The notes below the pieces were generated by a model. That model did not search any database. It was not told the origin of the DNA and was given only the letters and a program-made list of their open reading frames with translations. A stretch of DNA of 56,635 bases, counting the filler, from Dugesia japonica (lineage: Eukaryota): the NCBI GenBank assembly GCA_001938525.1. It is 5 parts of 5 records of this genome, joined end to end, with 100 filler letters (N's around TTAATTAATTAA, not from the genome) between each part and the next. Parts side by side here need not be neighbours in the genome. Positions count along the whole stretch, not along the records: positions 20,610 to 37,627 come from MQRL01606560.1; 4 more parts are not named here. One strand, 5' to 3'. The number at the start of each line of letters is the position of its first letter. Position 1 is the first letter of the stretch. The position numbers and the translations under genes are program-made. Of this stretch, positions 2,261 through 49,491 are shown in pieces.

Positions 2261-2754
2261 ATCGCTAATAAATCGCTTTATGTCAATAAAGGAAATCCTT
2301 TATTGATTGTATTAATATTTAATTAATAAATTACATTATTTTTCATCACTTTGCTTTGTTTTTATTGATTTTGTTGTTGCTTCCGAGCAGCAAGCACTAG
2401 ATATTCCAAATTAATGCAACAGACAAAATCATTGCCAGTTATAATATTCCAGCTTGGAAAGTATCAAAAGTTCAACTGTCTTTAAACTTTCAGAAAATAC
2501 GTATTATTTCAACTAATCGCCACGATTTCTTATGTCAGATTCAATATTTCGTCTTGAAAGACAATTGGCATATTAGAGGTAATTATAAAAATTTCATTGC
2601 TAACAGACCAAAAAGTTTTATAAATGATAATCAGAAATAAGTATATTAAAATAAATTTAGAATAAACTGAATTTCTTTACATAATAACAGCTTTTATAAG
2701 AATAGTATATTTCNNNNNNNNNGTATATTTCAAATTCGACGGGATATTCCATAA

Positions 2755-4668: not shown

Positions 4669-4889
4669 TTTCACTTTTACACTACCAATAATATATATCT
4701 CCTCTGATTTGATATTTTTTATGATATAGTGTTTCTGATTCTCTGTTGTTACGTAATTGTACTGTATTTTCTGTTTCAACTCAGGCGATAGGTTCTGTCA
4801 ATCTTGAAGTTTTAATAGGAGTGCATCCTTCAAACAAATATTTTTCATCTTGTGGAATAATAACTTGGCTTTGGGCGTATCTATGTTTA

Positions 4890-5390
4890 TGTGATATGTT
4901 TAATGTCACCGGTTTTAGAAAGCTCCTGACCTTTGCTACTTCTAATATTTCGTTTCTGTTTAATGATCAACGATATAAGCAAATTGACGGAGTTGCTATG
5001 GGTTCACCTCTTGCGCCTACTCTTGCTTCATTATTTCTTTCGAATATTAGAAAAGGATTGAGTTATTATTTGAATTGTTTACGGGAATTAAGCCATTATA
5101 AGCGTTATATGGGTGATATTTTTTGGTGTTTAGTAATCAATCTAATGTAGAATCTTTTCTGAATTATATGAATTCTTGATACTCGAATATAAAGTTCACA
5201 ACTGAAATGGAACGTAATGGTAAACTTCCTTTTCTTAATTTATTAATAGAATGGAAATCTGACTATTGAGACAGAAATCTATCGATAGCCAGCTGATACT
5301 GGTTTAAATACAACACCTGGTAGTTTCTGTGAATCTNNATATAAATTTAATATGATTAAAGGTTTAATATATAGATCTTGGACTCTCTTC
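4890..5390 (+). mobile_element. Penelope-like element reverse transcriptase fragment (decayed)
   Basis: FLFNDQRYKQIDGVAMGSPLAPTLASLFL, YKRYMGDIF (degenerate YxDD), then NIKFTTEMERNGKLPFL after a frameshift. Confidence 0.85.
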
Positions 5391-7639
5391 TTATTTTTCG
5401 AAGTCGATCTTGGCTTTAAAGATTTTAAAAATGGTTTGCTACCACCAGCGTCAGACACAAGAGAACGTATCCGAAATAGTTGAATGTGTTCTTGCAGGTT
5501 TTCTCCAAAATTAGTTGTTAAACGTTGGTAGATTCTAACATCTGAGTTTTATACTGAAAATACTTAGTGTTGTCTATTAGGAGAATAGAAAAGGCAAAAA
5601 AATTAATTTATTTAGCTGAATGGTTTTTTTTCTCCTACCTCGGCTCTTACAATTCTGTTGATTATACTCCTGTTGGTTATTTTTTCCTTTTACAAATTAC
5701 TGATTGGCCAACGGGTACGGCCTACGTAGTTGGTTTTATTAGGAGAATTTATCCATAAATGTTTCGATAATTAATTATCTATTTTCAGTCCACAAAATAT
5801 TTAGGTAATTATTTTTTTCTTTGTTTATTAATTTTCCTATATGAAAAATAATTGTAGGTAATTAAATTCCTCACTAGCTAATTAATTGTTGCTTGCTACA
5901 TGAAATGATTACTAGTAAAACTCGGTATAATTATTTCCCAGTCGAAATGGATAATTGTGGGTTATTATTTCTTCAGGCTTAGTAAAAATTACTAATTGTC
6001 GTCTCGGGAAATTTTTTATTCTTTGTTNTAATTGGTGGCTAAATTGCATGATAACTATTTGATTAGATTAGATTAATTAGATTGACTAGATTAAAGGAGT
6101 AAGTAGATAGTAGCGCATTTCCCAACTTTTTAAAGCAGTTATCGTGCACCCCCTACTTTTGTGACATTTTTTCTAAGATTTTTGGGATCAAATTTTTTTT
6201 CCTAAAAATTTGTATTTTTAATTTTTAAAATTTGTGTGTTTGTGTTGCCAAGGGTGTTTTTAAAAAGTAGGTCAAGTTGAGTTTGGGTGTGTATGTGAGT
6301 GTGTGTGTGCGTGAAAGAGTGAATTTGGACTCGAGGGAGAGCTGGAGATCGTGGAAATAATTTTTTTGTAGTTTTTAAGATTTGGTTGTGGTTGGACAAA
6401 AATTCGTTCTATACATTGTCTAAAGGACTTATGAGGTTGGATGGATGGATTTTGCTAGAAGTATGGTAGTGCACTGGCACAGGCGTTTGAGTTATCGTGG
6501 GAGTGTTTTTTGGGACTATATAGGTTTGTAGGGGGTGTTGAATTTGGATAGTCGATGGGTTATTGGAAAGGTAATGTGCTGGAGAATATTTTGGATGTCG
6601 ATTGTGACTTAATTTCTGATTTTTAGGGCTTGAATTTGATTGGTTGATATTTGTAAGTAGTATAAGTGTGTTAAAAAAATTTTCGGTAGGGGTAGAGTGG
6701 TATGGGTGGAAAGAGAATTAATTATCGGATTTTTTAGAATTTATTTGAAATTTTTCTGCCAGGCGGATGTGACGTAATATTGTTTTGAAATCTTTATTTT
6801 TGGTTAAAATGCTGTATTTTGCAAAAACGCGGATAATATTTTTACTCATGTAATGTGTTATCGACCCACCCCCCATTACTACTACTGTGTTGTGTGTAAG
6901 TTTATTTACGACCTACCTACTTACTATATAATAAGATGGGGGCTTGGTAATATCTAACGCGTAATGGTGTAATTGTGTAAAATATTTTAAAAATTAGTTA
7001 AATAAGTGGTAAAATAACAAAATTTTCTTGTTTTAATTAACAAATGTTGCCATTTTTATAAAATAAATAGGAGTCGCTACATATATTTGGTAAGCAATTA
7101 TGAAAATACAAGTTTTTAAATTTATAGTTTATTTGTTTAGATTTATTAACGGTTTCTTTCCGATTCAAGAGACTGTTCAGTTTAGGATAAGTCTTTAAAA
7201 CTGATTTAAGCTCTGAAGTAAACATAACAAGTTTACTAAAATATTGATTTGAGCTTGAAGTTTTATCATCTTTAAATTTGGCAATATTAGAATCATTTGT
7301 CTTGTGTTTAGACTTAGATGACATAATTCCAACATTTCTTTTATTTGAATGACTAGAACATGGCATAATGTTAAACTGAGAAATATTTTTTTCAATTAGT
7401 TCTTTATTTATAGAACTTTCTTTATTATTATTGTAATATTTACAACAATCTCGAATAAATCATCAATAACAAATGATTGAAATGCTTGTAGAATTTTCAT
7501 TCTCTTCATAGTAGTNGAATGTATTAATGCTGTAAAGAATGATTTACTTCTTTCTAAATTCATCTTTGATTTAAATAGATAAATAATACTTAGTTGTTTA
7601 TAACATTGTCAATACACATTGAAATAATAATCTTCCTGT

Positions 7640-9030
7640 TTTTTACCATATATTTTTACCTTATTTTAAATTGATTATCCTATTTTACCATATTTTACCT
7701 GATTTACCACATTTTACCCGATTTTGCCCAATTTTCACATGGTTTGCTCAATTGCCTCTTATTTCGTCCGATTTGCCTGATTTCCTCAAATTTTGCTCGA
7801 TTTTCCTATATTTTGCTCTGTTTTATACCCCATTTACCCTATTTCTCCATATTTTATTCGCATTTATGGAATAAGCTTTGAATATCAATAATGAGACTAG
7901 GTTGAATTTATTGGATGATTACGTAACAAGATTAGCCTCTATTAATAAATTATGGTTTTTTTTATTGGATAAAGGATTAAGTCCATTACAATTTGAGATC
8001 AATATGGTTTCAACGTGAAAATAATAGGTTTATCTTGTGAAAAATAGGTATTTCTTTCAATAAATTCCTTCACATTTTGCCTTCATCCTTGCTTGCTTCC
8101 TTATTCCTTGCTTGCTCCTTGGTTCCTTGTGTGCATCTTAGCAAACCTGTGTGCACTTTGGTTTTCACGGGTTTTTGAGTAACTCAATATATAAAAACAT
8201 ATAAAACATTATAAAACAATATATTTACTCTATAAAAATCTAATAATGCTTATAAAAACCATATAAAAAGCAATATAATAACAAATAAAACCACATAAAT
8301 GCCCTATAGAAACATAAAATCCATCAATCATAAAAACCGCTATTAAAACCCTATAATTACCTTATAAAAACCTATAATAACCATATATTTACCTTGTAAA
8401 AACTTATAATGAGTCTATAATTACCATAGAAAACCATATAATAATCATATAGAAACATATAAATACCTTTTAAAACTCTATTAAATCATTCAAAAACCAA
8501 ATTAAAACATATCAACCATATAAAATTCTATTAAATTCATATACTTACCATTTAATTACCATAAGAAACCCAAATATTACCTTGCGAACTCAACAAGACT
8601 ATATAAAACACTATAAAAGTATATAAAAACGCGTATATTTACTTAATAAACGAGCTTTTGTATACTTACATTCCTATTTGCAAACCTATAATGTCTTTGT
8701 TAACTTGCACAAATATGAATCATGCTCTTTGTTCTAGTTGCATTCCTGTTGCAATGTCTTTGTTTGACTTGCATTTTATTTGTATATGTATGATTCATAC
8801 TCTTTTTAAACATGTATTTGTGTGTATGTATTGGTTCATTGTATGTGAATTAATTTATTATGTGATAAAAAACTTAATATAATTTCGATAATAGTTCGAT
8901 TATAAAACCATATAAAACACTCATAAAGCTATATAAAAAAGATTCATATAAAACCAATATTGATTTAACCCTATAATAACCACATAAACCAATATAAAAA
9001 CCATATAATAACCCATATAAAACTATGTAA
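7640..9030. repeat. Degenerate low-complexity short-period repeats (ATTTTACC-like at 7640-7870; ATAAAAACCAT-like at 8190-9030)
   Basis: Visible ~10-bp periodic, strand-skewed motifs; no credible ORF. Confidence 0.6.
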
Positions 9031-9358
9031 AATCAAATCATATTTCAATACTCAATTTCGCTTAGTAATCATCTGCATTGTATTATAGTATGATCATTGT
9101 TAGTATACGAGTTAAATTGTCTATGAATTTAGTTTTTTTNNNNNNNNNNNNNNNNNNNNNTACATGTATTGTTCATTACGCATCATTATTGTTTTGTAAA
9201 AATGAATTTTTTACTAAATAACGATAGTTCATTTATTTTAAAATTACCGCAACGTAGCATATATTATAATAATATAGATCAAATTGGAATAGTTTTGAAA
9301 TGTTTTATATTTATTTTGTTTTAATGAATCAATTAAAATAATAACAATGATATATATA

Positions 9359-9458
9359 NNNNNNNNNNNNNNNNNNNNNNNNNNNNNNNNNNNNNNNNNN
9401 NNTTAATTAATTAANNNNNNNNNNNNNNNNNNNNNNNNNNNNNNNNNNNNNNNNNNNN
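9359..9458. other. Artificial scaffold-joining spacer
   Basis: Exactly 44 N + TTAATTAATTAA (stops in all six frames) + 44 N. Confidence 0.97.
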
Positions 9459-10099
9459 CAAAGGTTTGACTGTATCACATTAAGTGTATCACCAGGTTAT
9501 TAATTACATTGTATTCGTTGGGCTGATTAATATATTAAGTTTAATGATTTGTATTGGTCTAGATAGAAGGCACACAAGTGTTGTCACATTTTACTTTGTA
9601 ATATTGAACAATTTCTAAACGATTTGACTTGTATATACGAATAACAAATTTTGGAAATTTGAAAAGATTACATTTATTGCAAACAATGAATTTAAACAAG
9701 ACATTCAAGATTTTAATACAATTAATTAATAATTTTAATTAAAATTAATTAAATACGTGGATTCATATGTTTATGTCTAAAATATGACTAAATAACCTTC
9801 AAATTTTAAGTACTCTATTGTCAAGAATCGACGGCCTGTACCCATAAAACAAATATGTAACAACTTTTATTAATCGAAAGTAAAACAAACGCATTATTAC
9901 AATAAAAATCCTTGGATATATAGGTAAATATAGTTTGAAATAGTTTATCAATGTATAACAATTTATGATGCCTGTAAAATTTTCACTCTACTCGGAAATA
10001 TTTAAATAATTTTCCTAGTATTTTACATAGGTTTTGAGAGTTTTCCAGCAAATCTCGGTGTAAATTTTCAACACTTCTAAAATAATATAGTCATTTATC

Positions 10100-10365
10100 C
10101 TTCATCATTACCATCTGCCTGCAATACTCGATGAAATGCTGGACAAGTTGGACGAAACAAAATATTTCAATTCAATAGATTTTGGAAATCAAGTATAGTT
10201 CGAAAAAGAATCTCAAGAAAAAACGGCGTTTACAACGAAGCACGGGCAATATAGTTTTAATAGAATGCCATTTGGCATCTGGAACATTTCAGGAGACGAT
10301 GACAAAAGTTGAAGGCTGAATTAATTAAGCCGTTGTATATGTTGATGATATTCTGATCATTTGAT
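10100..10365 (+). mobile_element. Ty3/Gypsy RT remnant
   Basis: DEMLDKLDETKYFNSIDF, KTAFTTKHGQYSFNRMPFG, VVYVDDILI with stops and frameshifts. Confidence 0.85.
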
Positions 10366-11052
10366 AAAATATACCAAACTTACAAATGACCAACAAAGAA
10401 GAATTATTCGTGAGCAAGGAAGATGCTGCAGCTCTGTTGAAAATTTATTATAATTATGCCCGAGTACTTTTAAATAGAATTATAAAACGTAATATTATCG
10501 ATAAAAAAAATCCAAAGATTGCAAAGCTAGATCAATTTTAACAACTGACATTCGTTCTAAAATAAATTTCATTATCTTGGATAATCTGGGAATTGACTAT
10601 GAAGGAGATTAAGCGTAAATTGGAAGTTGTGCATGTTGGTGAATTTTCAACATCAACATCCACTAGAAATAGAAGCATTGAGGAATAACATTCAATCTTT
10701 CTCAGAGTTGGATCGTATGAATTGCCCGGATGAAATTTTGATGAGAAAATAGTATGCTAGTAGTAGTTCAACAATCATATAATTAAATTAATTAATGATT
10801 AAACAAATATTTAAAATATAATATGCATATTAGATTCAATATATTTAATTGATTAAAATATAATAATAATGATATTAAAAAACCAAAAGAAATATGAAAA
10901 TAATTTTCACAATTTATTGTGGATAACAAAGTGAATAGCAAGTGAACCCCCCCAACAATAATTCCACAAATAATCGATCCAAGAGCGCCATCAATAAAAG
11001 AATAATGGATATTGAAATAACGATAGAGAGAGAGAGAGACCTAATCAACCAA

Positions 11053-12386
11053 TCACAAATTTAACAGCACAACACAAGGATCCTCAATAAACGATTTTAT
11101 CTTTCTGAGAAAGAGAACAGCCTCGCGCCCATCAATCAATCGGTGATCGTATGTGAGTGCCAAATACATCATCGGCCGGATCTCAACTTTCCCATCGATC
11201 GCAACTGGGCGCTGTTGAGTAGCGTGTATTCCGAGAATCGCTGATTGCGGGGGATTGATGATCGGAGTTCCCATCAAACTACCGAAAACTCCACCGTTGC
11301 TAATGGTGAAAGTGCCACCGTCCATATCTTCAATCGCCAACTGGCCCAATCTAGCGCGTTCTCCCAATTCGAATATTCCTTTCTCAATTTCTGCGAATCC
11401 CATATTTTGAACATCTCTCAAAACCGGCACCACCAAACCTTTCGGAGTGGCAACCGCGACGCTGATATCGATATAATCCCGATACACAATGTCACCACTA
11501 TCGATCACAGCATTAACTACCGGTTGATCCTGCAGCGCTAGGGCTGCTCCTTTGAGAAAAGCCGACATAAATCCTAATTTTACTCCGTGTTTCTTCTGAA
11601 ATGCTTCTTGATATTTTTTTCTTAAGTTTATGATGCAACTCATGTCACATTCATTAAATGTTGTCAACATCGCACACGTATTTTGTGCGTTTTTCAGTCT
11701 TTCTGCAATTCTAATTCGCATTCTATTCATTTTTACTCTTTGTTCACCGCGAGAGCCAGAAATATTCGAATCTGATGGAACAATTCGTAATTGCGGAGGA
11801 GGAAATATTTCTTTGATTAATTTATCATTTTGTAATGCTGGACTGCCTGTAAATTTTACTTCTTTCTTTTCTGTTACAGTTTCAGGTTTTTTCTCAATTT
11901 TCACTTCACTAATCACTTCTTTTTTTGGTTCAGTAACAGAGCCAAGTGAAATCTTTACTAAATCCTGATTGGCAATTACTTTGTCTCCATCTGCAACTAG
12001 TAATTCCAAAATCGTTCCATTAAATGGTGAATGAATTGGAATTGCAGTTTTATCAGTTTCTATTTCACCAACTACTTCATCAACAGACACAGTGTCGCCG
12101 GGTTTTTTAGACCATCTTACATCGCCTTCTGTAACTGATTCGGCAAAAGGTGGTGTTTTAATTATTTTATTTTCCTCAAATAGAAAAGAACTAATTCCGA
12201 TTTCTCTTTTAATTGTAAATATTCTGAAGATTAACGTTGAAAATATATCAAAATTATTCAATGCTATTACTTATTACGATTTCCATTAAATTGAGCAGCT
12301 TTATTACCAAAATTATTTATTAACACTTTATTAAATCGAAAATGAAGATTAATAGCTTTGATATTAAAAATTTTATATAAATTCAT
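11053..12386 (-). CDS. DLST: Dihydrolipoamide succinyltransferase (E2 of 2-oxoglutarate dehydrogenase), 2 exons (12386-12271, 12223-11053), ~428 aa
   Basis: Lipoyl motif [33 protein letters not shown], catalytic DHRLIDG; a 47-bp GTAATA..TTCAG intron (12270-12224) joins an N-terminal presequence-like exon in frame. Confidence 0.95.
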
Positions 12387-13209
12387 TTAAAAATCATATA
12401 TGTTTGGAAATTTATAAATTTATGCTGAAATGATTAATCATTGAAATTTTAAAACAAACTTGTTCTTCTGAAATAGTTAATGAGTTTCACGAAATAAAGT
12501 ATGACAGCTTATAATTTTTAAATAACTTATTGTTATTTCATGATAAATGGTAGAATATGGCTAATACTAATAGGTAAATTTCAGTCAATATTAGACTTGC
12601 CCACAATTTACTTTAGTTGCCAAGAAATCTACTTTTTATAGAAATAAAATTGAGGTTTCTTAAAAATAACTTAATTGTGTTAATTGAAAAACATTTGCTA
12701 AAATATTTTTACTAAATAAATACTGATAACAAACAACTTAATGAAGGTTAAATATGTTCTAAAATGAGAGTAATTAATTTAATTTGAATTACAATTAAAG
12801 GTAAAATAAAAATCCATTTACTTCTTCAAATGATATATTATTAATAATAATAAATAACTAAAAATTTTTGATTGAACAGCCTTTAAATTATATATGTATT
12901 TGGAGATTAAAATCAATGAAATAACAACATTATAGAATGGATGAAAAATAAATTTCGTTACAAAATGGGTCAAAAGTGTAAATAAATAGAAAAAATATAG
13001 AAATGAACAAAAGTCTAGTCTTGTTTAATTCATGATCACATTATTTCATGATCATAATTTTTAAAATATTCGGTATTTATTAGTATAATTCTACGATAAC
13101 TATTTGTTCAATTACATTTATATAGATAGATATATGAATTAACCGCATATCTTAAATGTGTCATGTTATTTATACAAGCTGTTAGTAAGTTAATATTTTT
13201 TCCAAATAT

Positions 13210-13845
13210 TTGTTAGGGCTGTAAGCTAGACTTACATTAATTTATCTAGTTTATAAATTATTTGTAAAATTTTATTTAATTTAATTCATAAAATTTCTGT
13301 TTGTTTAAACTTTTCTATATATTAAAACTTTCAAGGTCATTCAATTTAATAAAACGAATTTTTATAAATTACTAAAATTAGAAATAAGAAATTAATCAAT
13401 ATTTTTTTTACACTTATCGAGAAATAAATNNNNNNNNNNNNNNNNNNNNNNNNNNNNNNNNNNNNNNNNNNNNNNNNNNTAGCAAAATGAAAATTTAATG
13501 TCGATAATATATATTATTGTTAATCATGTTTTAGTTCACCTTGTTGATAATTAAATTATTTATATTGTTAGGGTTGTAAGCTAGACTTACATTAATTTAT
13601 CTAGTTTATAAATTATTTGTAAAATTTTATNTAATTTAATTCATAAAATTTCTGTTTGTTTAAACTTTTCAATATATTAAAACTTTCAAGGTCATTCAAT
13701 TTAAAAAAACGAATTTTTATAAATTACTAAAATTAGAAATAAGAAATTAATTAATATTAAATTTAATAAAAAGAATTTTTATAAAATACTAAATTTAGAA
13801 ATAAGAAATTAATCAATTATTTTTTACACTTATCGAGAAATAAAT
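13210..13845. repeat. ~220-bp near-identical duplication on either side of an N gap
   Basis: TTGTTAGGG(C/T)TGTAAGCTAGACTTACATT...CACTTATCGAGAAATAAAT at ~13210-13429 and ~13565-13845; may be an assembly artefact. Confidence 0.8.
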
Positions 13846-14877
13846 TATTACTATATTTAGTAATAATGAATATTGTCCTAATTTTTTCTTATGTGTATTA
13901 ACACACATACTTATAAAATTTAGTATAAATACTGATTGAAAATCATTAGTAAAAGAAAAGAGACATAAATTTTAGCTAAATTAGCAGTTCGGCTAATTAC
14001 TAGCAGTAAAGATTATTATTTGTTTCTCTTTAAAATTGTTGGATTTTGTCAGATAATAATACAGTGGTTCAACCACTAATATATTATCTGTGATTTGTTA
14101 TAAAATTAATTAAATACACATCTTGAAGTAACACATATGGTGAGGAAATTTAGGCCCACCATTCATAACTTATCAGGACGGTTTTGTAATACCGGTATTC
14201 ATCCTTCCATTAAAATTTATATAGGAGCAGTTTTGCACAATCCGTAAAATCAATCGTCTTGCTATTTATTGTAATTTTTATATATTTTGGTTTATATTTG
14301 ATTTATTGAAATAAAGTTTTATATAATATAACGTGTTCTCTTAGTTATTTATTGTTATTATCATATTCAATTATTATAATATAATACCTTACGCGCATAT
14401 AATTTTCTTATTAAAAAAATTTGGAGTCAGATTAAATAGTTAAATAATTAATTGTTATTTCTACCCACAAGATCTAACAATATGTTTAGCGAATTAATAA
14501 CCATATGCAACCCCAAACTGACCCAAACCATATAAAATCAATATACTAATTTTGGGGGAAGAGAAATCATCTTTCTTGCTAATAAGGGATTTCCCTTGTT
14601 ACCATTAATAGCTTTTGCCATAGTTGTTAATACCATCCTTATAAACATATACAACACACCAACAAATTTTCAGGACAATCTATAATAAAATATCATAATG
14701 ACTGCTCTTATTAACAATCTCGTCATCAACAAATCGATATGGTTATTAGCAAAACCCATCACGAGTAGGTGTGTGGATGCACTGAGTCATCCCCGCACAC
14801 TCATTTAATCACACCGGAATTTATCGTTTTATCTATTAAAACCACTTCTAACTAATTCTGCAAAAAAAAACAAAATA

Positions 14878-17260
14878 ATGAAGCCAATCATTTACGATGG
14901 AATGTATTTCAATGTAAAATGGAAATTAATAGTGATAATCTCCTTGCCGGAAATAGTAGTGGAATTGTTCATTCTAGAGGATTCTGGGGACCCCTTCAAA
15001 TATTCTCATCTAAAAGGATATTATGGTGATTGTCAATTTTCGCTAATTCATACGGGTACAGAACACGTTTCTTATCGTTGCATGTGAGTAGACTTTACCT
15101 GGCTTCCTTCGTCAACCACGTTTCGGTGAAATACCACCGTCAACTTCCAATCATCAAAATCACTATTATTATAAGAAATTATCCTGCTGGGTGGATCGTG
15201 AGAATATTTTTCTTTATTGTTAAGGAGTATATATGCATTTGTCGTTATAATTAATATATCCTTTATTTGTGTCAAACAAAATTTCTTTGTTGATCAATAT
15301 CATTAATATAATTAATTGAGATATTTGTAGGAATATTTAGATACTGTTATAATAATTTATTATGGTCATTATTATTTGTGGATAAAGATCTAATTGTCTA
15401 GTCATGGTTGCAATGATTTTCGTCTCATTAGGGGTTGAGAATAGAATACCTGTAATTATGAAAATAAATGGTTGAAGGCATTCTCGGAAAAAGTAAATTC
15501 ATCACTTCGACCAACCAGAGTAGGGTTCTAAAAATACTCCTCACTTTTACCAGTAGCAGGAAAACACTATTCAACCCGCTCGTGTTATGTGAATTTTTTA
15601 TTCACGATCCTGACTTTATAATGATATTAAACCCTGAATAAATGAGTTCCGAGATCATAAGATACTGTTATCCCAATTAATACATTTCTAGAAATGATGA
15701 CAGTTATATTATTTAATACCTGCATAAGGTAACCTGCATGCCATTTTGTTTTTATAAAATACTGATGACTAATTCTTTAGATAATGTCAGAGGAACTCAC
15801 CCTTACTCTGAGCTTAATTTGGAAAGAGAGGTGGTCGGTCCGATTGAGACAACTACTTGCTCATATCCTATCACGAGGGTATGTAGAATACCCCGACGAA
15901 ACCGACTTAGCCTGATTCGCCGAAATGTTTCCCCTAACCAATACGGTGAATTTAGATGTGGAAAACGAATCTCGCTAAACTTTCAGTTATATTTTTAATT
16001 ACGTAAAATAAAAAGTTGCTTGGATGGTTGTGTAGTTTTGATTGATGACATGGTTTATCTGTCTTATTTTTGGTAGTATATCAAATTAAACCCTATTTCT
16101 TTATTCAGTACCTGTAGGATGGAGTCTATTTGGGAAAGAACCATTGACAGAAGAACCCGTCGTATCATCTTTCGCCGGCATTCGAATCCGCATAGTCGTG
16201 ACGCCGGTATTATGTCCGATAGGTCGAACTTACATCCCGTCGAAGCCACGGTAGCTCGCATCCAGAGCTTCGGTGAGCGATTGAATTTTCGTCTGTGCAA
16301 TAGGCCAGAGCGTAACCACGCTACCTTTTTCATTACCAACCTCCAGCACACCAACCAGTAATGCAAGCCTCCGACCCGGAGGGTCGGAGGATGCCGAAAA
16401 CACCGTTCCTGCTACAGACACAACCCCTGACTCCTAATGTTTATTNNNNNNNNNNNNNNNNNNNNNNNNNNNNNNNNNNNNNNNNNNNNNNNNNNTTTAT
16501 TTTGCTGTCGTCTAAATTGATCAATAAATATGTGTTTTTACTTAGTCGTAGTCTGCTTCAACAAATCTTCAATGTACTAATTGAATTTCTTTTAGTGCCT
16601 CGCATCACTTTCCCTAATAGTATACACAGATGCCATCGCAAAATGCGCCGCCTCCTATTAGAACGTCACTTAAAGCTGAAAACCGACAGAGCACTCATCA
16701 AGCATTTTGACCAACGAGATCGCCTAATCAAAAAACTTGATCAGGTTGTGAATAAACAGAACAACCTAGCAGTGTAGACAAAAGCATTAGAGGAGGAAAA
16801 TAAATTGTTGCTGCAAAGGAAAATTGATTTCCTCAAGCAATATATATCCGATCTCTCCCGACAATTAGGAAACCCTACCTGGATTCAATGGGACGACAAC
16901 GAAGACGTCGCCGCCTTCAATTTCTTGGTAACCGACCCAGATCAGTGGTTAGATCCGGAGACACTGGATCTGATGTAATTATTTATATAAAATAAAATGT
17001 GTCTAGTTTAACTCTGTCTCACGTTTAATAAATTCGGAATAAGAGGGAAAATAATGAACCCAAATCCAAAGGCCTATGGGCGCGCTCCTCCCATTAAGCG
17101 AGAGGTCAACTACCATAAGCTGAATACCTAACCTAGGGGCGTTAGGATATATTCTTGAAAGAGTCCCCTGAGGGCTGTTTTGCCACAGCCACATTTTTTT
17201 TATCCTACTCAGGTAGAGCCCCAACATAAATATATATGCATATACAATTTTATTGAGCAT
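14878..17260. other. Cassette of short, GC-richer, decayed ORFs of unknown origin
   Basis: Blocks 15784-15978(+), 16119-16361(+), 16643-16978(+, coiled-coil-like, one internal stop) and 17003-17260(-), separated by AT-rich spacers; no domain recognised. Confidence 0.4.
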
Positions 17261-20509: not shown

Positions 20510-20609
20510 NNNNNNNNNNNNNNNNNNNNNNNNNNNNNNNNNNNNNNNNNNNNTTAATTAATTAANNNNNNNNNNNNNNNNNNNNNNNNNNNNNNNNNNN
20601 NNNNNNNNN
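20510..20609. other. Artificial scaffold-joining spacer
   Basis: 44N + TTAATTAATTAA + 44N. Confidence 0.97.
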
Positions 20610-20610
20610 T

Positions 20611-21960
20611 AAATTGGATGTAAAAATAGCTGCATATTTTAACAATAAAATTGATTTTATTTATCATGAAATTTTGAGACAAGTAGACAGAATATATCAA
20701 GAAACAATGATGAGAAATTGTAAAATTAAACGAGAATTATTGAGGGCAAAAATGCAATGGTAGTCACAAATCCGGATCTGGTAGCACCACTCCTGTTCGA
20801 GGAAAGAGGAACATTTGGAAGAATAGTGGGAGAAACTNTAGTGAGTTTTCAATGTAAACCAGTAGCCGTTACGCTTACAGATCATGAGAAATGTACAAAT
20901 GAATTACCAGTAATATATAAGGGAGAAAAAGTGTTTCTGCTTCCCATAACAAGGATTTTAACAGATAAACATTATCAACCAAAAAGGATTGAAAAATTTA
21001 GTAACATTCTTGATCCTAAATACAAAATAAATGAAGAGGTATGCATAACAGTGTCGGATAGAAAGACAGCACCAACTCCACTAATGATGGAAATAATAGA
21101 GCTTGGTAGAACAACAGAATTAGAAAGGATTGATAATATAGAAAAGCGTGGTATTTATACGATTAACGATATTGAGAAGGCGCGAAAACATATGCTGTTC
21201 CCAATACAAAGAGAGAAAATAATATCGATTGTTAAGTAATAATAAGAGAGAGATAAGTAATGATATCAAAATATGTATTTCACAACAATGCTATGTGTAT
21301 ATATATATATATATATATATTGGGATCAGGCATAGTAATTACCCAATTGACCTTGTTAGTAATTATGTCATCAAACAGTCAAACATATCAGATTTTTCAG
21401 GCATANNNNNNNNNNNNNNNNNNNNNNNNNNNNNNNNNNNNNNNNNNNNNNNNNNCATACATGCAAACATACAATTACATAACATAAAATATTTAATTAT
21501 CATTATTATAATTAATCACATCTTACATCAATAATGGTCGATAAAGTAGCAAGAGGGAGTAATGGAGACGACTTGAATTTTGAATCACTATTGCACGCAG
21601 ATCATTTTAAAAGGGCAATGCGTAATTTCGTAGATAGAATTTTGGGGGGAATGCAATGATTTGGTAATATATTCTCATGTATCCTATTTGGATGGTATGT
21701 TTTAACATTTTTTAAATTAGCGGGTCATCAAATAATTTCTCTAAGACAATTACATTCAGTTTTTGGTTACACATGGAAATTAGGAGCATGTTTCTGCCCA
21801 TTTATTGCAAAACACATGATTGTGCAAAACCACAGTAAAAAAAATAAAAAACTTGGAAAAGCATCGAGGCGTATATACAATAAACATGGATGATGAGCAA
21901 GAGTTAAAAAAATTAAATAATGATAGATCATCAGAAACGGAATATAAACCATATAAATAA
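20611..21960 (+). pseudogene. Chuvirus/gB-type (class III) fusion glycoprotein, C-terminal half
   Basis: AYFNNKIDFIYHEILRQVDRIYQETMMRNCKIKRELL; GRIVGET.VSFQCKPVAV..HEKCTNELPVIYKGEKVFLLPITRIL; GIYTINDIEKARKHMLFP; after the insertion FGNIFSCILFGWYVLTFFKL..LHSVFGYTWKLGACF (membrane anchor). The motif order matches chuvirus-type G as I recall it. Confidence 0.8.
21230..21527. mobile_element. Nested solo-LTR-like insertion in the glycoprotein gene
   Basis: Begins TGTTAAG, ends CTTACA, flanked by TCGAT/TCAAT (5-bp TSD, one mismatch); removing it restores ...KIISIMVDKVARG in frame. Confidence 0.75.
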
Positions 21961-22027
21961 GAAAATATCGAATTAGAACAGAAAAATAGATGATTCAACA
22001 CAATATAAATATCAAAAGAATTACTCA

Positions 22028-22670
22028 ATGTCAGTCATAGATTCAGACAATAATAGACCCACAGCCGATATTATAATAAATGGAATTAGTATACCTTCGT
22101 TGATAGATACAGGAGCAGTATGCTCAATAATAAAAGAGTCATGGTTAAATAAAGCTCAAAGACAGAAAATAAAAAATTACAAACCAGAAGGTATAAAATC
22201 ATTTACAGGTCACATAATAAAAACAAAAGGCATAATTGAATGTACGGTCTCAATTGGACAAGAAATTGTTACACATCCATTTAGAGTAATGGAAGATGAA
22301 ACTCAGAATTGTATTTTAGGTATGGATTTTCTGGCAAGATTAAAAGGATACGTCATTGATTTGCAAGATAGCACACTAAAAATGGTAACATCATTACCAG
22401 TGNNNNNNNNNNNNNNNNNNNNNNNNGCAACAGAGTTAATAACAGTGGAACGCTGTAGTGAATGTATAATACCTGTACATACAGAAGTACAAAATAACAA
22501 ATCATAAATTTTTGAACCAAATGAGAAATTGATAGAGAAAGATAATTTATCAATAATGCCCGGATGTGTAGAACCAAGAAAAGGAATAATATCAATGAGA
22601 ATAGCCAACTGTAATAATTACGAGGTGATACTTAAAAAAACACAAAATTAGGAAAATTATTTGAAAATGG
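22028..22670 (+). pseudogene. Retroviral-type aspartic protease followed by a dUTPase-like spacer domain
   Basis: SLIDTGAVCSII and CILGMDFL; then IIPVHTE..LSIMPGCV..ISMRIANCNNYEVILKK.TKLGKL. Confidence 0.85.
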
Positions 22671-22957
22671 AAACGAATATGAAATATATGAAATTGTATT
22701 TGAAGAACAACAAAAGAAAGTGAACCTATAGAAGCACAATAAACAAACCCCGAATATAAAATCAACAAAAAAGGGTTGTCAACTAAATAAGCATGAACTA
22801 TTTGAGCTTATAATGAAAAAACAAGAGAAAATAGACAAAATAATTGACAAAGAACTAATAAAGCAGAAACAAACAAAATATTATGAGAAAGGAAAAATAA
22901 CAAATAAAGATCTCACAATAAATCAACGACAACAACTACAGAAATTATTAGACAAAT

Positions 22958-24265
22958 ATGAGGATGCATTCANNNAAACATGAATTTGATATGGGAGGAA
23001 CAAACATTATAAAACATATAATCGATACAGGTAATGCAAGACCAATAAAACAACGACCATATGTAGCACCATATGTGTTAAGACCGGGAATCAAAAGACA
23101 AGTAGCGGAACAAAAAGCGAATGGAATCATACGAGATAGTTTTTCTCAATGGGCATCGCCAATAGTAACAGTTAAAAAGAAAGACGATGAGATTGGAATG
23201 TGTATTGATTATAGAAAGCTTAATGAAGTCACACAAAAAGATACACACCCATTTCCAAAGATACATGAACAATTCAATAAGTTAATGAATGCAAAATACT
23301 TTGCAAGTTTAGATGCTAATAAAGGTTACAATGTAACCCCAGTACAAGAAGAGGATCGAGAGAAAACAGCATTCTGTACTGATGATGGGTTATATGAATT
23401 TATCAGATTACCGTTTGGGCTATGCAATGCACCAGCTACATTCCAGAGATTAATGAACACAGTATTAACAGGTGTTGAACATGTAGTTGTATACATGGAT
23501 GATATACTCATAGCATCTGAAACATTTGAACAACATTTGATTAATATAGAAAATGTATTGTCCAGAATTAGAAAAGAAAATATTAAATTAAAACCCACAA
23601 AGTGTAAATGGGCAGAGGAAAGTGTTTTATTTCTGGGACATATTGTATCATCAAGAGGATTAGAACCAAATCCAGAAAAGGTAAAAGCGGTCCAAGATTT
23701 TCCAGTGCCAAAGAGTGTACAAAAATTACAAGGATTTAATGAATTAGTGGGATATTATCTTAGATTCATACAAGATTTTGCAAAAATATCAGCACCATTG
23801 GTAGAATTAACCAAATGTATGAAAACAAAAGGGGAAAGTAAAAATGTCATGATTGTAGAACAACTAGATGAAAAATCAAAGAAGCCTCAGAAGAAATGGG
23901 TCCCAAAACAACAAGAAGCCTTTAATACATTAAAACAACGATTGCTAACAGCTCCAATATTAAGATATCCTGATTTTACGAAGCAATTCATAGTAATGAC
24001 GGATGCAAGTGGATATGCTATGGGAGCAGCGCTCGGTCAGGAAGACGAGAAAAATAAAGATTATGTAATTGCATATGCCAGTAGAATGTTAAAAGGAGCA
24101 GAGACAAGGTATTCAACAATTGAAAAAGAATGTTTAGCCATCATATTCGCGTTAAAACAATTTAGACCATTTATATATGGAACAGAAATAATGATTCGAA
24201 CAGATCATAAACCATTAGAGGGCCTATGGAAAAATAAAGATACATCCATTAGAATACTGAAGTAG
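22958..24265 (+). pseudogene. Gypsy reverse transcriptase + RNase H
   Basis: SQWASPIVTVKKKD, CIDYRKLN, LPFGLCNAPATFQRLM, YMDD, TDASGYAMGAAL, YSTIEKECLAI, TDHKPL. Confidence 0.97.
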
Positions 24266-24268
24266 GCA

Positions 24269-25652
24269 ATGAAAATCCAAGATATGAGCATACGTATTAT
24301 ATACAAGCCAGGTAGAGCAAATAAAAATGCCGATGCATTATCAAGAATTCCGGAAATAAATATATTAGAAATGATGTCAATTGTTATGACAGGGGCAAAC
24401 CCAAAAACGTTTCTGGAAGAGCAAAATAAAGATAAACGAATCCAAGAGATTAAAAGGATGATGCTTCAAGAAAAAATTACCAAATATAAAATGTATAAAA
24501 ATCTGCTTATGTACAATAATTTAGGGGAAAATCTGATGGTTGTACCAGATTCTCTAAAACAGTTATTATTATTACAATATCATGATGGAGCGCTCGGAGG
24601 TCACCTGTCTAGTAGAAAAACCACGTCAAGATTAATACAAAAATACTATTGGGATAATATAAAAGAGGATGTAAAGAAGTGGTGTAAAGCATGTAGTATC
24701 TGTGCTACAAGAAAAAATACAGGAACAAAAACCAAAGTTCCATTACAACCAATGCCAATACCCAGCTCACCAATGGAAACATGTGCAATGGACTTTTTGT
24801 GAAAATTACCAACAACTATTAAAGGTAATAAGCATATATTAGTATTCAATGATTATTTTACAAAGTGGGCAGAGGCATTTCCTACAAATAATGAAACGGT
24901 AGATACTGTAGCAAAGTTATTAGTTGAAAAGATAATATATAAATATGGAGCGCCAAGAAAGTTGCTATCAAATAGGGGAAAGAGTTTCCTCAATGAAGTC
25001 ATACGAGTAACAAATATGTTTGATATTAAGAAAATAAATACAACGGTTTATCACCCACAAACTGATGGGTTAGTTGAAAGATTTAACAGTACATTATGTA
25101 ATAGACTGGCAGTTTTCGTAAATAAACATCAAAATGATTGGAATCTATTTATTAAGCCAACATTGTTCATACATAATACAACTGAAAACGAAGCCACGGG
25201 ATATTCACCATTTTATCTTATGTACCTCAGACAAAATCATATGCTAATAGATATAACATTTTGAGCCAATTGTGTCACAATATATGGATAATCCAGATTA
25301 CATTACAAAAATGCAAGAAAGACTACAAGAGGTATACAAACAAGTAAAATTCAATCTAAAAGTAAAATTCAAACAGGAACAATACAAAGACTATTTTGAC
25401 AAAAAAGCTAAAGAACATAATTTTAAAGTAGGAGATAAAGTGAGGATAAAAACAACAGTTACACAAAAAGGGTTAACAAATAAACTAGCCAGANCTTATA
25501 AAGGTCCATATNAAGTAGTAAAAACAACTCCTACAAATTTACACGTAATAAAAAACAAAAAAGATGATCCCATGATTGTGGCAGTTAACCGATGCAAAGT
25601 AGCAGAAGCAGAAATTGAACCTGAAAAACAACACAAATTTAACCTTCGACCA
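24269..25652 (+). pseudogene. Gypsy integrase (H2C2, DDE core, GPY/F)
   Basis: HDGALGGH..CKACSIC; AMDF; DYFTKWAEAFP; SNRG (D changed to N); HPQTDGLVERFN; YKGPY; ends FNLRP; internal stops at 24800 and 25262. Confidence 0.95.
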
Positions 25653-25667: not shown

Positions 25668-26613
25668 TTACCACTTTTTGCACTAACTTTAGTGACATTA
25701 ATAACAGTAAGTGCAGCAAAACTAGAAAAAGAACAAAGTTTTGGTATTATAGAAAGAGTAATATATCCTAATAGTATCGTACTGAAGACATCGAATAATA
25801 TAACAATTGCTGCAACAATTAAAGAGCAAGTAATCGAATATGTCATAACAAATGAATACATCACGAGAAAGAGATATGTTTTTAAAGAAATATCAATAAA
25901 ATTTAGCAAGGGNNNNNNNNNNNNNNNNNNNNNNNNNNNNNNNNNNNNNNNNNNNNNNNNNNTAAAGAAATATCAATAAAATTTAGCAAGGGAAAAGGCC
26001 AGATAGAGATAAAAGGACTAGAAGCTGACACAACATGTAGAATTTGGATACAATATAGAATGAACGGAGTCAAATTATTGAGACAGTATATATTTACCAC
26101 GTTACCAACGAAACTGATTATACCGCAAAGACAGTTAATGAATCCTTCAAAGAAACAGGAAAAGTCGAGTACAACCAAATTACAAATAAAGACAAAATTT
26201 GTGACTATCCCTACAAGACAAGAGAAGTTAATTCCAACCAAAGAAAAAATAGAAACAATTATTCATCACAATACAAGAATATATAATAATTTTACAGTGA
26301 AAACGACAACGTGTGCGATAACAAACAAAAATCCAAGGAGAGATAGACAGACTCGGATTAATAGCATAAATTTAGATCATCAACAATTGCGACATAAAAT
26401 TCTACAGAGGTGGGTTACAACCACAATAAAACCATTTGACCTAAAATATTATATCATCCTTTTTCAATATTGGGAATAATTGCATAACTCATCCTCCTCG
26501 CTTTCATAATTACATTAACCCAAATACTTAAGCGATATAGGTGGAAGAGGCAGCGTTATCGGCGTCGCAATGCCCAACAAATTCCGAATTATGTCCGATG
26601 GACATTGGTCTGA
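25668..26613 (+). pseudogene. Type-I membrane protein in frame after integrase: signal peptide, Fn3-like domain, Thr/Lys-rich stalk, TM helix, basic tail
   Basis: LPLFALTLVTLITVSA; IEIKGLEADTTCRIWIQY..YIFTTLP; then, after a frameshift, FSILGIIA*LILLAFIITLTQILKRYRWKRQRYRRR; the duplicated ends of the gap at 25913-25962 collapse to an in-frame join. Confidence 0.65.
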
Positions 26614-26756
26614 GCACCCTATACAAAATTTGTTAAAATTCTATATCATTATTTATATATATTTTTCTTTATATTATAAGCTACTAATACATGTGGCAGT
26701 ATATAGGACTAGTCAGTCCTTAAAATCAAAAATTAATTATTACATTTTTTTTAGAA

Positions 26757-28926
26757 ATAACACTTCAAAAAAAGATATCAGAAACAAGCCAGATCAATCA
26801 ATACATTATAATATATAACAGACAAATCACAAAATACCATTCCTTTACATATTACATAATGCAGTCAAAACAGCACGTTACACACATTCAACAATCGAAT
26901 AATAATATACAGAAAACACATCAATACAAGCAAGCAGAACATAACATAACAAGAAAAGATAACAAAAATAGCGAATTAACACAGTCAATGCACAATAAAT
27001 CTACACACTCGGCAAACATTCCTTCATCCTCATCCTTAGTCACAAAAGGTGTCGCGCATTTTTATAACCATATACAAAGTTTTGTATTCAAAGATAAAGA
27101 TAGTGAACCTAGGATAGAAGTTTTTAATGGTGTAAATACAATCCCGAATGTCTTAAAGAACAACACTTTTGATAAAGACATCATTGTGATAAGATTTCAG
27201 AAAGCTCAGAGATACTCACTACAACAATTTATAGGATATATAGAAATAGAGGAAGATCCAAAAGAAGCACTATTAAATGGCAAACGATTACTTAAAGAAA
27301 TTAGATTACATGTTACAAAAACTCCTATTAGATTCTCGTAGAAAAAAAGAGATATACATATGCTGGCAAACAACACACTGATATTAGAGGGAAAAATAGA
27401 TCCAGGAGTAAATAAAATAAAAGTTGCAATACAGGATATTCCAGCCGTTCTTTGTGTAGAGTTAATTTATCATGATCGTATTTCTGCACCTTTTTCTACA
27501 TATACTGCTATAAAAGGGCATTGCGTGGTAATTTATATAGATCTGATTAACCATACATCGTTCCTCAAATATGCAATCTTAACAGAAAATGATATAGAAC
27601 AATTAATAGTATATGTAGATATGATAACAGTCAAGGATTCATATTTTAATTTGCAAGTGGTAGAGTTGACTATATTAAATAATAAAGGAGAGATTATATT
27701 GGATGAAACCCTATGTCTACGAGAAAGGATAAAGCATTTTGACACGCCAAGTACAGGGTATACCCATGAAAAGATAAAGAAATGTAAAGATGCATATCCT
27801 ATAGTTCTGAAAGCACGGCAGTTATTGTATGGGAAAATACTAGTCGGTTTTGAATTAGGAAATAAACTAACGAGTTTGCACATTAACCACAGACATGTTA
27901 TTGGTATCAGAGATCTTGCGGAAGACATATGGCGTAAGATGTATACTCCGAATGTAAAGAAGTTGAAATTGATCAACNTTATGGAAGCAGTATTTAAACC
28001 CATAAGGCAAGATAGGGTCATCAGAGATATGTTGAAAAACAGCGAGAGAAAAAGCGCAGGAATCGACAGCAAAACGAATAACATTCATAAAGATTACATA
28101 CAAACAAATAATTACTCAACAACCATGGCACGATTCTATATATCCTGGTAATAACCCGGTTATGAAAAGTATAGAAAATAATGCTGCAATATTGCAAGAA
28201 GTCATGACTAGAGAAAAGGAGAAACCAGACAGTGTAATATGGATATTAGATTCTGAACAAGATTCAGATATGGAAGAGAATGGAGAAGAGACAGATAGAA
28301 GCACAGATAGTCAATCTAATATGAGTAGTGACATAAATATAGAGTGGGACGAGGAAGACTTACCAGAAGAACTTAGACCGCATAACGACACTGGTGAGCA
28401 GCAGAGATTGATTGATGACATAATGCGACAAAGTCCTAAAGAGATACAAACAGATATGGACGCATCTGAGGATGACGAAATCCCAGAACGGACAATGTCA
28501 CAGAGAGAACAAAAGGAGTCTGGAAGTGAAACTGAATACTGGTCAGGTGAAGAAGTGGAAGATCTTAGGTTGAATCAAGTAAGAGGAGATTGCGAGTTGA
28601 TACCGTATCATACGGATAGCGACAGTGATGACCTCAGTCCTGAACCACAAATTGATATATACGAACCTGGTACGGACACAATCAATTTGAATAGAGCCCT
28701 CAAAATAGATAAGTTCGATGGAAATATTAACAATGCAAAAATAACTTTGAAAAGAATATCGGGTAAAGATATGCAATTACAGTTTGGAAAGAAACACATT
28801 AGATTAACAACCATTAAGGAGGATAGTAAGAAGACATTAAAATTTATTGTTGAAAATGTTTTGCTTAACACCATCGCTGTCACGAAAAAAGGTGCCGTAC
28901 TTACACTTTCAGTTAACAATGATTAA
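26757..28926 (+). pseudogene. ~720-codon accessory ORF with a REX4/ISG20-like DEDDh exonuclease-fold domain (~27600-28110) and an acidic linker
   Basis: IVYVDMITV..VVELTILNNKGEIILDE..IKHFDTPSTGYT..QLLYGKILVGFELGNKLTSLHINH..IRDLA follows the REX4 pattern; in-frame TAG at 27339 and a frameshift near 28050 link the three predicted ORFs. Confidence 0.7.
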
Positions 28927-29009: not shown

Positions 29010-30324
29010 ATGAATCCCAGTTATCAATCACAACGATTGTTTTGTGTTACAGTCAGCACTTATAACTTTATATGAGAAACACCGGAACTTAACAAACCCT
29101 TACAATTATTGTTGGTCAGACATTGCACCAGTTACGTTACTTATCACAGATAAACCTATGTGTCCTTTATGTTACGACCAACCTATTTTACCTCGTATAG
29201 CACCATGTGGCCACTTCTTTTGTTTTGCTTGTATAACTGAATATTTTAATATAACCCACTCCGATAATTTACTTTGTCCTTCTTGAAGATCTCAACAAAT
29301 TTATGATACTAAATTACGTCGTGCAAATTTCTATTATGTTAAAAAACCTTCTGTTGGACAAATTGTCTCACTAAGCCTCATGGTTAAAATGCCGTGTAAC
29401 AATAGTACGCGCTTTGCCCATCTCACCACTTTTCTTGAACAAAAAGACATTCCTGATTGTTACGATCCTGTCAGCGAATTCCAAGACATCTCCACCCAGC
29501 ATGATTCCTTAACAATGAAACAAATTAACAATGACATTCGGACAGTCAGTTATGGTCAGTTTTCGAAAAAACAAAAACATCAGTTAATAAAAATATTGAA
29601 GGCTGAAAGAACACATTTTACGTTCCACATTAAAATATTAGATAAGCTTCAGTATGAGAAGACATTCACAGAAAAAACCATGGATGCTGCCAAATTTAAC
29701 CTTTTAGTACAGCATACTACCTTGCAAATTACTATCTTTGTGTATCAGTCTGCCGCATTCCATCGAAAATTTCTCAATGAAAAACAGAAGACACGATTTC
29801 TTAATAATCAGCCGGACAGTACCCCGTTTTGCATAAGTGGATATATTACAACAATAGATTCGATTATAGTTGATCATGAGAACCTATAAAATTTTCAATA
29901 CCATTTTCTACCCGACCATACAAAAATCCGATCGCTGTCTATCACTATTAATACGATATCTATCCCTAAATCGCTTGGCCCATTAAGTTATTTGTATACT
30001 CACGCTAAAATAACGAGAATGGCAATAGAAAAACGCAATCCAGAATTACAAGCCATTGCGAGTGAAAGCAGAGCTAGAATAGGCCAGCCTGCCAGAATAC
30101 TTACCCGTCAATCTAAAGAAAGTGCTATAGATATTTTCTCCCGAAGTCCTTCTGTTTCCCCATCCTCCATAAATCCAGAAGCCGAATTCCCGGTATGTAT
30201 TTTCAATGAACCTTGTTCCAATAATACATTTTCACCGTATCACGATATTGTCCCTATTTCGCGTTTATCCAAAGATGACGGAGCATCTATTTCGGAGAGG
30301 GAACGTTTGTTGAGGTTTGACTGA
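29010..30324 (+). pseudogene. RNF10/Mag2-like C3HC4 RING E3 ubiquitin ligase, intronless, decayed
   Basis: CPLC..PRIAPCGHFFCFACI..CPS* RING; also RNF10-like flanks (W.DIAPVTL, VGQIVSLSLM, FVYQS..KFL, TPFCISGYITTID, YHFLPDHT); ORFs 29044, 29380 and 29992 share one frame, separated by single stops. Confidence 0.75.
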
Positions 30325-30722: not shown

Positions 30723-31683
30723 GTAAATCTTTTTGATTTTTATAGAATAACAATTACTAGGTCAATGCATGAGGCCTAGTGTAAAATTGACTATAAATAC
30801 TGACGTATGTCAGTTTATTTTCAGACNNNNNNNNNNNNNNNNNNNNNNNNNNNNNNNNNNNNNNNNNNNNNNNNNNNNNNNNNNNNNNNNNNNNATATAT
30901 CCCTAATAAATATTTTAAAGGTGATTATTTATTTCATTTGTATAAGGAACTATACAATATATAACTCTATTTATATTTTTAGTAAATTATCATCTATATA
31001 ATATTTGTAGTTACATACGTTGCATAATAATATTTGAAAAGATAAAACATACACAATCATATAACTATTTTAATACGAACCATAAACTTTTGTTGAGTTA
31101 AATACCCAACAATTGCCATAATGTGAAGTCGCGTTCTTTGAGTCCGATACTTTGGTCTCGAAGCCTTGCATTTTTTTTGAAGTTATGGAATCTCGTGTTG
31201 CAATGCGTTTGTGTAACGCACGCCATTTTTTCATAAGATAGTTGGTTGTGGTATTTGATGAAGTAGATTTAAATGTTGACACTGAATTGAGAAATATTAT
31301 ATTATCAATGTTCACAAGTAACACAATATATATTTAATTCATTTTGAATTAGTTTAATTTTATAATGGTGATTTCTGATTTTATTAACTCGGACAAGACA
31401 TTCTTATTATCTCTTAGGTGGTTCTTAAAAATAAAATACGAAGATATTTCCACAGAGAACCTTTTATTGTACAGATACACATGATTTTAATGATCATTAA
31501 TACTGTTAAACGGCAGTTTCGGTGTGATTTATTTCTTCGTCCAATGCGGGTAGTATTTGCTGTAGTACAATTTCAATTCTTGCCGTCAATCTTTCACATT
31601 GCATTAAGTATTTATCGATTTCAATAGTTTTTATAATTACAATTATTGTGAGAATAATTGTTGGACTTAACCATTGATCGGAT

Positions 31684-31793
31684 TTGAGATTTCATTAAAA
31701 TAAGATAAAGCTTCAAAACAAAATTTATTTGAACTTTTTTACAAATAAATTTTGTTTTGATCGAAGCTTTATCTTATTTTAATGAGATTTCAA
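31684..31793. repeat. ~50-bp-arm inverted repeat (hairpin)
   Basis: Left arm 31684-31731, 10-nt loop, right arm 31742-31793; two mismatches and a 4-nt bulge. Confidence 0.9.
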
Positions 31794-34893: not shown

Positions 34894-35545
34894 TTAATCA
34901 ATCATAGTCATGTTGGTTTCAGGTGGATCAACTTCCATCTGCATAAGATCAGCATTTCTGGGAATTCCAATAATCACCGCAATAATTATTGTAGAAATGT
35001 AAAAAATGCAAAACAATCTATCCAACACCAAGCCTAAAGTTCTCCATTCCATTGTTAATTGGTTTTTTCGTTGAGCTTCTTTTTGTTTTCCAATATATTT
35101 TCGTACGTAACGAGAAATTTCCATAACATCTTTCTCTATTGAACTAGTACCACCACACACCATAATAGGAGAATCTTGAGAATTTGATACTCCTTGATTT
35201 TGTGCACCATTAATACCAATACTGGGTTTACTGTGAGACACAGATCTATGTCCATTGTTACGAGAATATTTTTGATTACCATTCTAAATGAAAAATATAA
35301 TAAATATAAAACTTAGAGTTTTTCTTTCTAAAATTTACGTTTTGAGGTAAAGATATTTCTTCTACTTGAGGAACATCAGACGCCATAAACTTATTACTAA
35401 CCAATTCAGGTACGTGTAATTTATGTTGTAATCTACCAGCTGGAGATTGAGTGACGAATATATTCCGATTACTAGGCGGTTGTGGAGGTGGAAGTGGAAT
35501 AAATTGACTAACAAATAGAAGACGTCCGATATTATCAATCATTAT
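34894..35545 (-). CDS. Nicotinic acetylcholine receptor (Cys-loop) subunit, last two exons (35545-35339, 35283-34894)
   Basis: MA-M4 signature MEWRTLGLVLDRLFCIFYISTIIIAVIIGIP; 55-bp GTAAAT..TTTAG phase-0 intron; upstream exons not found in the scaffold. Confidence 0.85.
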
Positions 35546-49490: not shown

Positions 49491-49491
49491 G

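Follow-up and report, generated by a model that had tools for sequence, protein, structure and literature searches.

Background

Giant Gypsy elements of dugesiid planarians, known as Burro or GYPSM1, are described in the text of Arkhipova and Yushenova 2019 (PMC6431247) as exceeding 30 kb and carrying an ORF1 of ~4,900 aa with AIR1, Smc, MATH, BIR and ankyrin domains. According to that text, env lies in frame between gag and pol, the env-like region matches mononegavirus fusion glycoproteins and stands directly before the protease (PR), a BCL2-like domain precedes env, and a dUTPase-like domain lies between PR and the reverse transcriptase (RT). The text of Chary and Hayashi 2026 (PMC13524379) reports Gypsy elements of gB-type with a GAG-ENV-POL layout from Nematoda, Bryozoa and Platyhelminthes, including six in Schmidtea, places the ectodomains of gB-type errantiviruses between two transmembrane segments, and relates that in non-canonical nematode endogenous retroviruses (Sacco et al. 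2022) env lies before pol in a metavirus.

Here we describe a locus within a stretch of 56,635 nucleotides (the window) from Dugesia japonica, an AT-rich and gappy eukaryotic scaffold, in which the domain order is glycoprotein (G), PR, RT, RNase H (RH) and integrase (IN). We read it, with a probability of about 0.85, as a degenerate copy of a Burro-like, multicopy Ty3/Gypsy element with GAG-ENV-POL order and a class III fusogen directly before the protease, likely in one chain with gag and pol. This layout is real but already in print, both for planarian Burro/GYPSM1 and for gB-type GAG-ENV-POL elements, and the window thus contributes one further, broken, example. The novelty that an earlier sequence-only reading of this DNA had implied for an env before pol is accordingly withdrawn, the in-frame env of Burro having been reported in 2019 (PMC6431247) and gB-type GAG-ENV-POL Gypsy elements being described from three phyla in the text of PMC13524379.

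With Burro, as that text presents it, the locus shares an env directly before the protease, a protease-RT spacer, accessory ORFs and, in the relatives of the window element, a Bcl-2-like segment before env. In contrast, the text of PMC6431247 makes no mention of a cassette after the integrase or of downstream exonuclease-like, CS-like and RING ORFs such as those of the locus, and the size, LTRs, gag and AIR1/Smc/MATH/BIR/ankyrin block of Burro lie outside what the window shows. Gene order, a gB-type fold and an ectodomain between two hydrophobic segments are held in common with the gB-type errantiviruses of Platyhelminthes as there described, from which the window copy differs in not being intact; by motif comparison only, the nearest natural relative of the window G (P0003, see below) holds all five of the short motifs that were drawn from the Smed_errantivirus_3 row printed in PMC13524379. 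The nematode endogenous retroviruses come from another host phylum. We consider that the element works like Burro and is best classed, as a new, defunct member, among the gB-type GAG-ENV-POL elements of flatworms.

Dezordi et al. 2020 are said to have described BEL/Pao elements of mosquitoes that bear a chuvirus G. The glycoprotein family is shared with these, whereas the pol of the window is Gypsy-type both in domain order and in its nearest relatives, with G located 5' of pol; P0061, in which env stands behind a DUF5641 domain, falls among the stand-alone G proteins in our tree, apart from the window.

Results

The glycoprotein remnant and its damage

The region 20611-21860 corresponds to the C-terminal half of a glycoprotein of the Monjiviricetes/chuvirus type, three pieces of which match consecutive parts of the Monjiviricetes_fusion profile (PF24664, length 653), covering its positions 304-611. 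The features from the scaffold gap to the protease are:

20510..20609, no strand: scaffold gap; the G profile match begins at position 304 directly after it
20611..20760, plus strand: env/G ectodomain piece 1 (PF24664 304-348, E 5.3e-5; also found by tblastn of relatives)
20730..21236, plus strand: env/G ectodomain piece 2, in another frame (PF24664 345-503, E 6.6e-26)
21230..21527, no strand: LTR-like secondary insertion of 298 nt (TG...CA ends; 5-nt flanks that differ at one base)
21528..21860, plus strand: env/G piece 3 with membrane anchor (PF24664 503-611, E 4.1e-10, stop read as X)
21820..21990, plus strand: hydrophilic linker or tail from anchor to protease (two frame changes, one TAA)

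Piece 2 also matches BDV_G (E 3e-4) and shares 53% identity over 164 aa with P0003 (183 bits, compared with 21.9 for the best of 100 shuffles). A sequence comparison of the G piece with solved structures gave no match under E 0.1. The hydrophobic anchor (~21669-21725) is moderate only, with a KD19 of 1.67, and is followed by a weaker hydrophobic stretch at ~21750-21806 (KD19 0.96).

The copy is decayed, with frame changes, stops in G, linker and pol, and the LTR-like insertion, which splits G at profile position 503 and whose flanks are adjacent in one contig of run X4. The sequence-only reading had listed the lesions of the linker, which we recovered, and had left out the frame change near 20750 between pieces 1 and 2, the TGA at 21657 just ahead of the anchor and the insertion at 21230-21527. 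Inside this insertion lie a TA microsatellite and, at 21406-21455, an assembly gap that masks the true length of the insert. The gap at 20510-20609 removes the N-terminal half of env and all sequence 5' of it, which is why gag is not visible in the window; no CCHC motif was found in any frame of the whole window, whose 5' part of the element is missing in that gap, and no long direct repeat able to be an LTR pair was found within the window.

The linker between glycoprotein and protease

The hydrophobic end of the glycoprotein is followed by a hydrophilic tail that runs into MSVID..IDTGA, and the peptides quoted earlier for this junction were all found in the window. From the stop positions in each frame, the most direct reading route between G and protease does contain two frameshifts and one TAA; A-runs of 8 and 6 lie at the first frameshift, whereas the second, also described earlier as an A-run frameshift, has no A-run of at least 6. 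As the linker lacks homology, the exact places of both frame changes are inferred. The distance from the anchor to the catalytic Asp is 443 nt (~148 codons), which bears out the claim that there is no room for gag between G and PR. The assembly is continuous from 21456 to 22402.

The TAA of the linker does not recur in related copies (49 contigs listed, run X4), and hence does not behave as the conserved stop that would have spoken against a continuous chain. The indels listed for that run do not include the two frame changes, and a single frame across G and PR is demonstrated only for relatives ~35-50% identical.

Pol, downstream ORFs and copy number

The assignment to Gypsy made earlier is upheld by the PR-RT-RH-IN order with an H2C2 integrase. 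The features of pol and of the region downstream are:

21977..22402, plus strand: aspartyl protease, DTG at 22106 (PF13975 E 1.1e-11; PF00077 E 5.9e-8)
22427..22648, plus strand: conserved spacer between protease and RT, at the site of the dUTPase-like domain of Burro (matches P0014, E 1.1e-8, and P0010, E 1.2e-5)
22976..24262, plus strand: reverse transcriptase (YMDD) and RNase H (PF00078 E 5.9e-31, PF17919, PF17917; 51% identity to P0010)
24266..25600, plus strand: integrase, with H2C2 finger, core containing a TGA, and C-terminal domain in another frame (PF17921 E 2.3e-20, PF00665 E 3.9e-7, PF18697 E 1.6e-4)
26724..28148, plus strand: multicopy downstream ORFs, the second half weakly like the DEDDh exonuclease SDN1 (E 0.14 to 5z9x; no Pfam match)
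28036..28923, plus strand: acidic ORF with a weak CS-domain match at its end (PF04969 E 0.051; multicopy depth)
29014..30321, plus strand: C3HC4 RING ORF and its continuation, broken by stops (PF00097 E 5.8e-8; multicopy depth)

The RT is 41-51% identical to those of the retrieved relatives, and the spacer at 22427-22648 gave no Pfam match, including none to PF00692. Run X4 yielded 11,373 contig records over 30 of 30 bins, mostly 90-99% alike, and the element family is a large multicopy repeat. Depth in this run is high over G and pol alike, and from 25.5 to 30.3 kb the summed depth is ~280-16,000, compared with 11-21 in single-copy bins, which marks the downstream ORFs as multicopy and as probable components of the element. 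Counted from the middle of env, the multicopy stretch runs for at least 9.7 kb. RNA run X15 placed 194 reads on env-pol (20611-25493), 159 of them under 90% alike; ~85% of the RNA depth was antisense to the coding strand, a figure drawn from these 194 reads of related copies only, with the strand judged from one neighbouring minus-strand gene.

Other sequences were noted elsewhere in the window. A very high-copy, MITE-like short inverted-repeat element (repeat I17) lies at 31629-31793, with a summed depth above 500,000 in X4 and X1, a separate RT fragment from another retroelement at 10109-10349, and a DDE_1 transposase fragment (E 2.8e-10) at 49398-50033 on the minus strand. Host sequences, all on the minus strand, comprise long unbroken ORFs for 2-oxoglutarate dehydrogenase E2 (11053-12270) and for a divergent tubulin whose C-terminal tail is long (44863-46065), and an expressed exon with a weak ligand-gated ion channel match (34894-35545, E 0.0054), in which 31 of 35 X15 RNA reads are without 6 letters at 35236. 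For one host gene, the top match with a name comes from a monogenean flatworm, at 62% identity.

Relatives in which glycoprotein and protease form one chain

A search with P0003 across 1.84 billion representatives gave 874 matches at E 0.001, of which 150 were listed; 21 of these best 150, picked by rank and length, were scanned. G and protease were found in one chain in 10 of the 21, with RT as well in five of the ten (P0006, P0010, P0014, P0019 and P0023), and P0011 was an eleventh protein with a protease match (E 0.0018). CCHC knuckles were present in 6 of 16 proteins examined, every one upstream of G, P0016 carries Retrotrans_gag, and P0023 shows a weak match to a Ty3 capsid. From the anchor to the protease the relatives span 124-218 aa in nine of ten measured and 384 in P0005 (P0011 gave no landmark), and the linker of the window (~148 codons) fits the former range. 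The earlier proposal of a single polyprotein of G and PR with gag upstream is therefore borne out in intact relatives of the same G clade, but not for the broken copy itself.

These data bear on the possibility that env and pol are adjacent and separately framed, with Pol produced through programmed frameshifting, read-through or its own start at the methionine of MSVID. The G and protease frames do differ in the window copy, a methionine stands ahead of the protease, A-runs occur in the linker, and the text of PMC13524379 gives three ORFs for GAG-ENV-POL elements, with fusion not stated there. A single shift cannot bridge the linker, however, since both frames hold several stops there, and ten relatives run G into the protease unbroken with linkers of like length; with the TAA absent from the listed related copies as well, we regard separate framing as quite improbable.

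In a quick tree of G (116 rows), the G of the window groups with P0003 inside a group of 21 (SH-aLRT 98) that contains 11 polyprotein-embedded G and none of the 80 stand-alone G, with the G of P0019 and P0023 falling outside it. P0017, of the same clade, ends ~55 aa past the anchor without a protease, through truncation or a stop, and P0003 and P0004 are fragments. That the glycoprotein might be a separate endogenous chuvirus fragment lying, or assembled, beside a Gypsy pol could be suspected from the gappy assembly, from the gap and insertion that interrupt G and from its resemblance to chu-like virus proteins. Against this, the sequence between 21456 and 22402 is free of gaps, the G is far nearer to polyprotein-embedded than to stand-alone G, the same relatives are the best matches for both the G and the pol of the window, and depth is high across both; already contradicted by the single-chain relatives and the tree, such a juxtaposition is hardly credible.

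The relatives come mostly from metagenome contigs, and none of the listed holders is on record as being of RNA origin. A word-based search for longer relatives found P0003 only. P0010 (HBK71150.1) is filed as a protein of a Flavobacteriaceae bin; its bacterial origin is doubted, and it is likely a stray eukaryotic contig present through contamination. Two to four aspartyl protease domains per chain were observed in P0005, P0006, P0007, P0008, P0015 and P0016, one of those in P0006 following the integrase, while the window has one; such tandem copies could dimerise within one chain.

A motif that we take to be BH2-like lies 57-70 aa before the start of G in five proteins (P0003, P0005, P0017, P0018 and P0024). 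Weak matches to PF00452 (Bcl-2) were obtained for P0024 (E 7.7e-5) and P0004 (E 9.6e-4), and P0024 gave no Bcl-2 match against solved structures.

Predicted fold of the glycoprotein

The fold was computed on P0003, a natural relative, and not on the broken copy, from an alignment of 133 rows; the AF2 model has a pLDDT of 88.0 and a pTM of 0.73. Compared with solved structures, all the matches listed for this model were herpesvirus gB (best E 6.6e-14, TM ~0.44, 12% identity), and among viral models the best were glycoproteins of chu-like viruses (E 6.6e-38). Both families that had been named beforehand for the structural comparison, herpesvirus gB and chuvirus G, were thus matched by the model, and with PF24664 positions 304-611 (E to 6.6e-26) this agrees with the earlier assignment to a class III fusogen of the Monjiviricetes/chuvirus G type. 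Herpesvirus gB and chuvirus G have a fold like that of the P0003 ectodomain at identities of 11-14% and ~20%, respectively, and differ in that here G sits inside a retroelement polyprotein. By its modelled fold the P0003 glycoprotein is a class III fusogen, with a predicted fusion activity.

Env might also have ceased to yield infectious particles, the single chain then using it as a membrane scaffold for intracellular assembly only. Budding viruses do not usually make Gag, Env and Pol 1:1 in a single chain, infectivity data for these elements were not found in the texts consulted, and the family-like RNA reads are few and mostly antisense. However, a full gB-like fold and cysteines that, in the alignment, are almost invariant have been kept across deeply diverged G relatives, and we therefore judge a purely intracellular role unlikely.

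The cassette behind the integrase

Directly after the integrase C-terminal domain we found a second candidate membrane cassette:

25668..25724, plus strand: hydrophobic, signal-like stretch that continues the frame of the integrase C-terminal domain (KD19 1.87)
25725..26200, plus strand: putative FN3-like ectodomain (Atlas FN3 0.88, a lead only; FN3 strand motif also in P0010 and P0006)
26461..26560, plus strand: transmembrane segment, containing a TAA, and basic tail (KD19 2.81)

The same position is occupied in the window (25668-26560), in P0010 (2254-2568) and in P0006 (2485-2738), and P0019 has hydrophobic segments after the integrase without the FN3 motif. This strand motif occurs twice in 106,247 residues, both times behind an integrase, and Atlas gave FN3 0.92 for P0010, with a low recognition of 1633. 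The FN3 identity of the domain may be taken as a lead only: the post-integrase part gave no Pfam match, the window pieces gave no BLASTP or phmmer match to P0010 and P0006, a single-sequence fold of this part reached a pLDDT of 36.5 with no usable model, and 0 of 2640 candidates were shorter relatives of the post-integrase part of P0010. The gap at 25913-25962 results from an overlap in the assembly, 30 nt being present twice.

Discussion

Predicted topology of the polyprotein

Immediately ahead of the [YF]DC start motif, each of the 14 embedded G examined has kept a hydrophobic stretch, and in stand-alone G this motif is found at a median residue of 25, with an N-terminal signal there in 64 of the 80 that have the motif. 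Embedded G proteins have one strong anchor after the ectodomain, and this is followed by a weaker stretch (KD19 1.0-1.7) that is also present in stand-alone G (at least 1.0 in 61 of 89 and at least 1.6 in 8 of 89). As Pol must by function be cytosolic, we take the weaker stretch to be a juxtamembrane helix; if it crossed the membrane, it would put Pol in the lumen. From the hydropathy pattern we infer a membrane-tethered Pol, which the second cassette would tether at its C-terminus also, and thus at both ends.

Under the mechanism that we propose, Gag and the accessory domains would be made in the cytosol, and the former signal peptide of G, having become internal, would send the ectodomain into the ER lumen, where signal peptidase would cut. 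The G anchor would then bring the chain back to the cytosol, so that protease, RT, RNase H and integrase would form a membrane-tethered loop until freed by the protease of the element. In the subfamily of the window, a second signal would export the FN3-like domain, ending in a final anchor, and Env would allow particles to bud from and fuse with membranes. This mechanism is beyond the reach of the window copy, which is too broken for any of its steps.

The location of the BH2-like motif, 57-70 aa before the start of G, suggests that the env signal might also serve as a tail anchor of the Bcl-2 type. Tentatively, and with more doubt than conviction, we propose a single polyprotein with four membrane crossings, in which Gag and a Bcl-2-like segment would be anchored by the internal signal of env, Pol would be a cytosolic loop between the gB-type anchor and the second signal, and the FN3-like protein would be a co-translated attachment partner of the fusogen. 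In the texts consulted on these elements we found no description of membrane topology or of an FN3 cassette, although the figures, Sacco 2022, Grohme 2018 and Lee 2026 may carry one, and the words "fused", "polyprotein", "fibronectin" and "cytosol" are absent from the text of PMC13524379.

Implications

One Burro-type element (Burro1, Lee 2026) is reported, as cited in the text of PMC13465017, to support stem-cell survival, and with Burro-type elements abundant in planarians and such a role in stem cells, movement between cells is a fair question. The mechanism matters here for how one chain would deliver its class III fusogen to the lumen and keep Gag and Pol cytosolic, and also at stake is the FN3-like protein behind the integrase as a possible second entry protein. 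Should the four-crossing arrangement be true, a retroelement would undergo processing of the kind known from flavivirus or alphavirus polyproteins, would rely on two glycoproteins for entry and would organise its assembly on the ER membrane.
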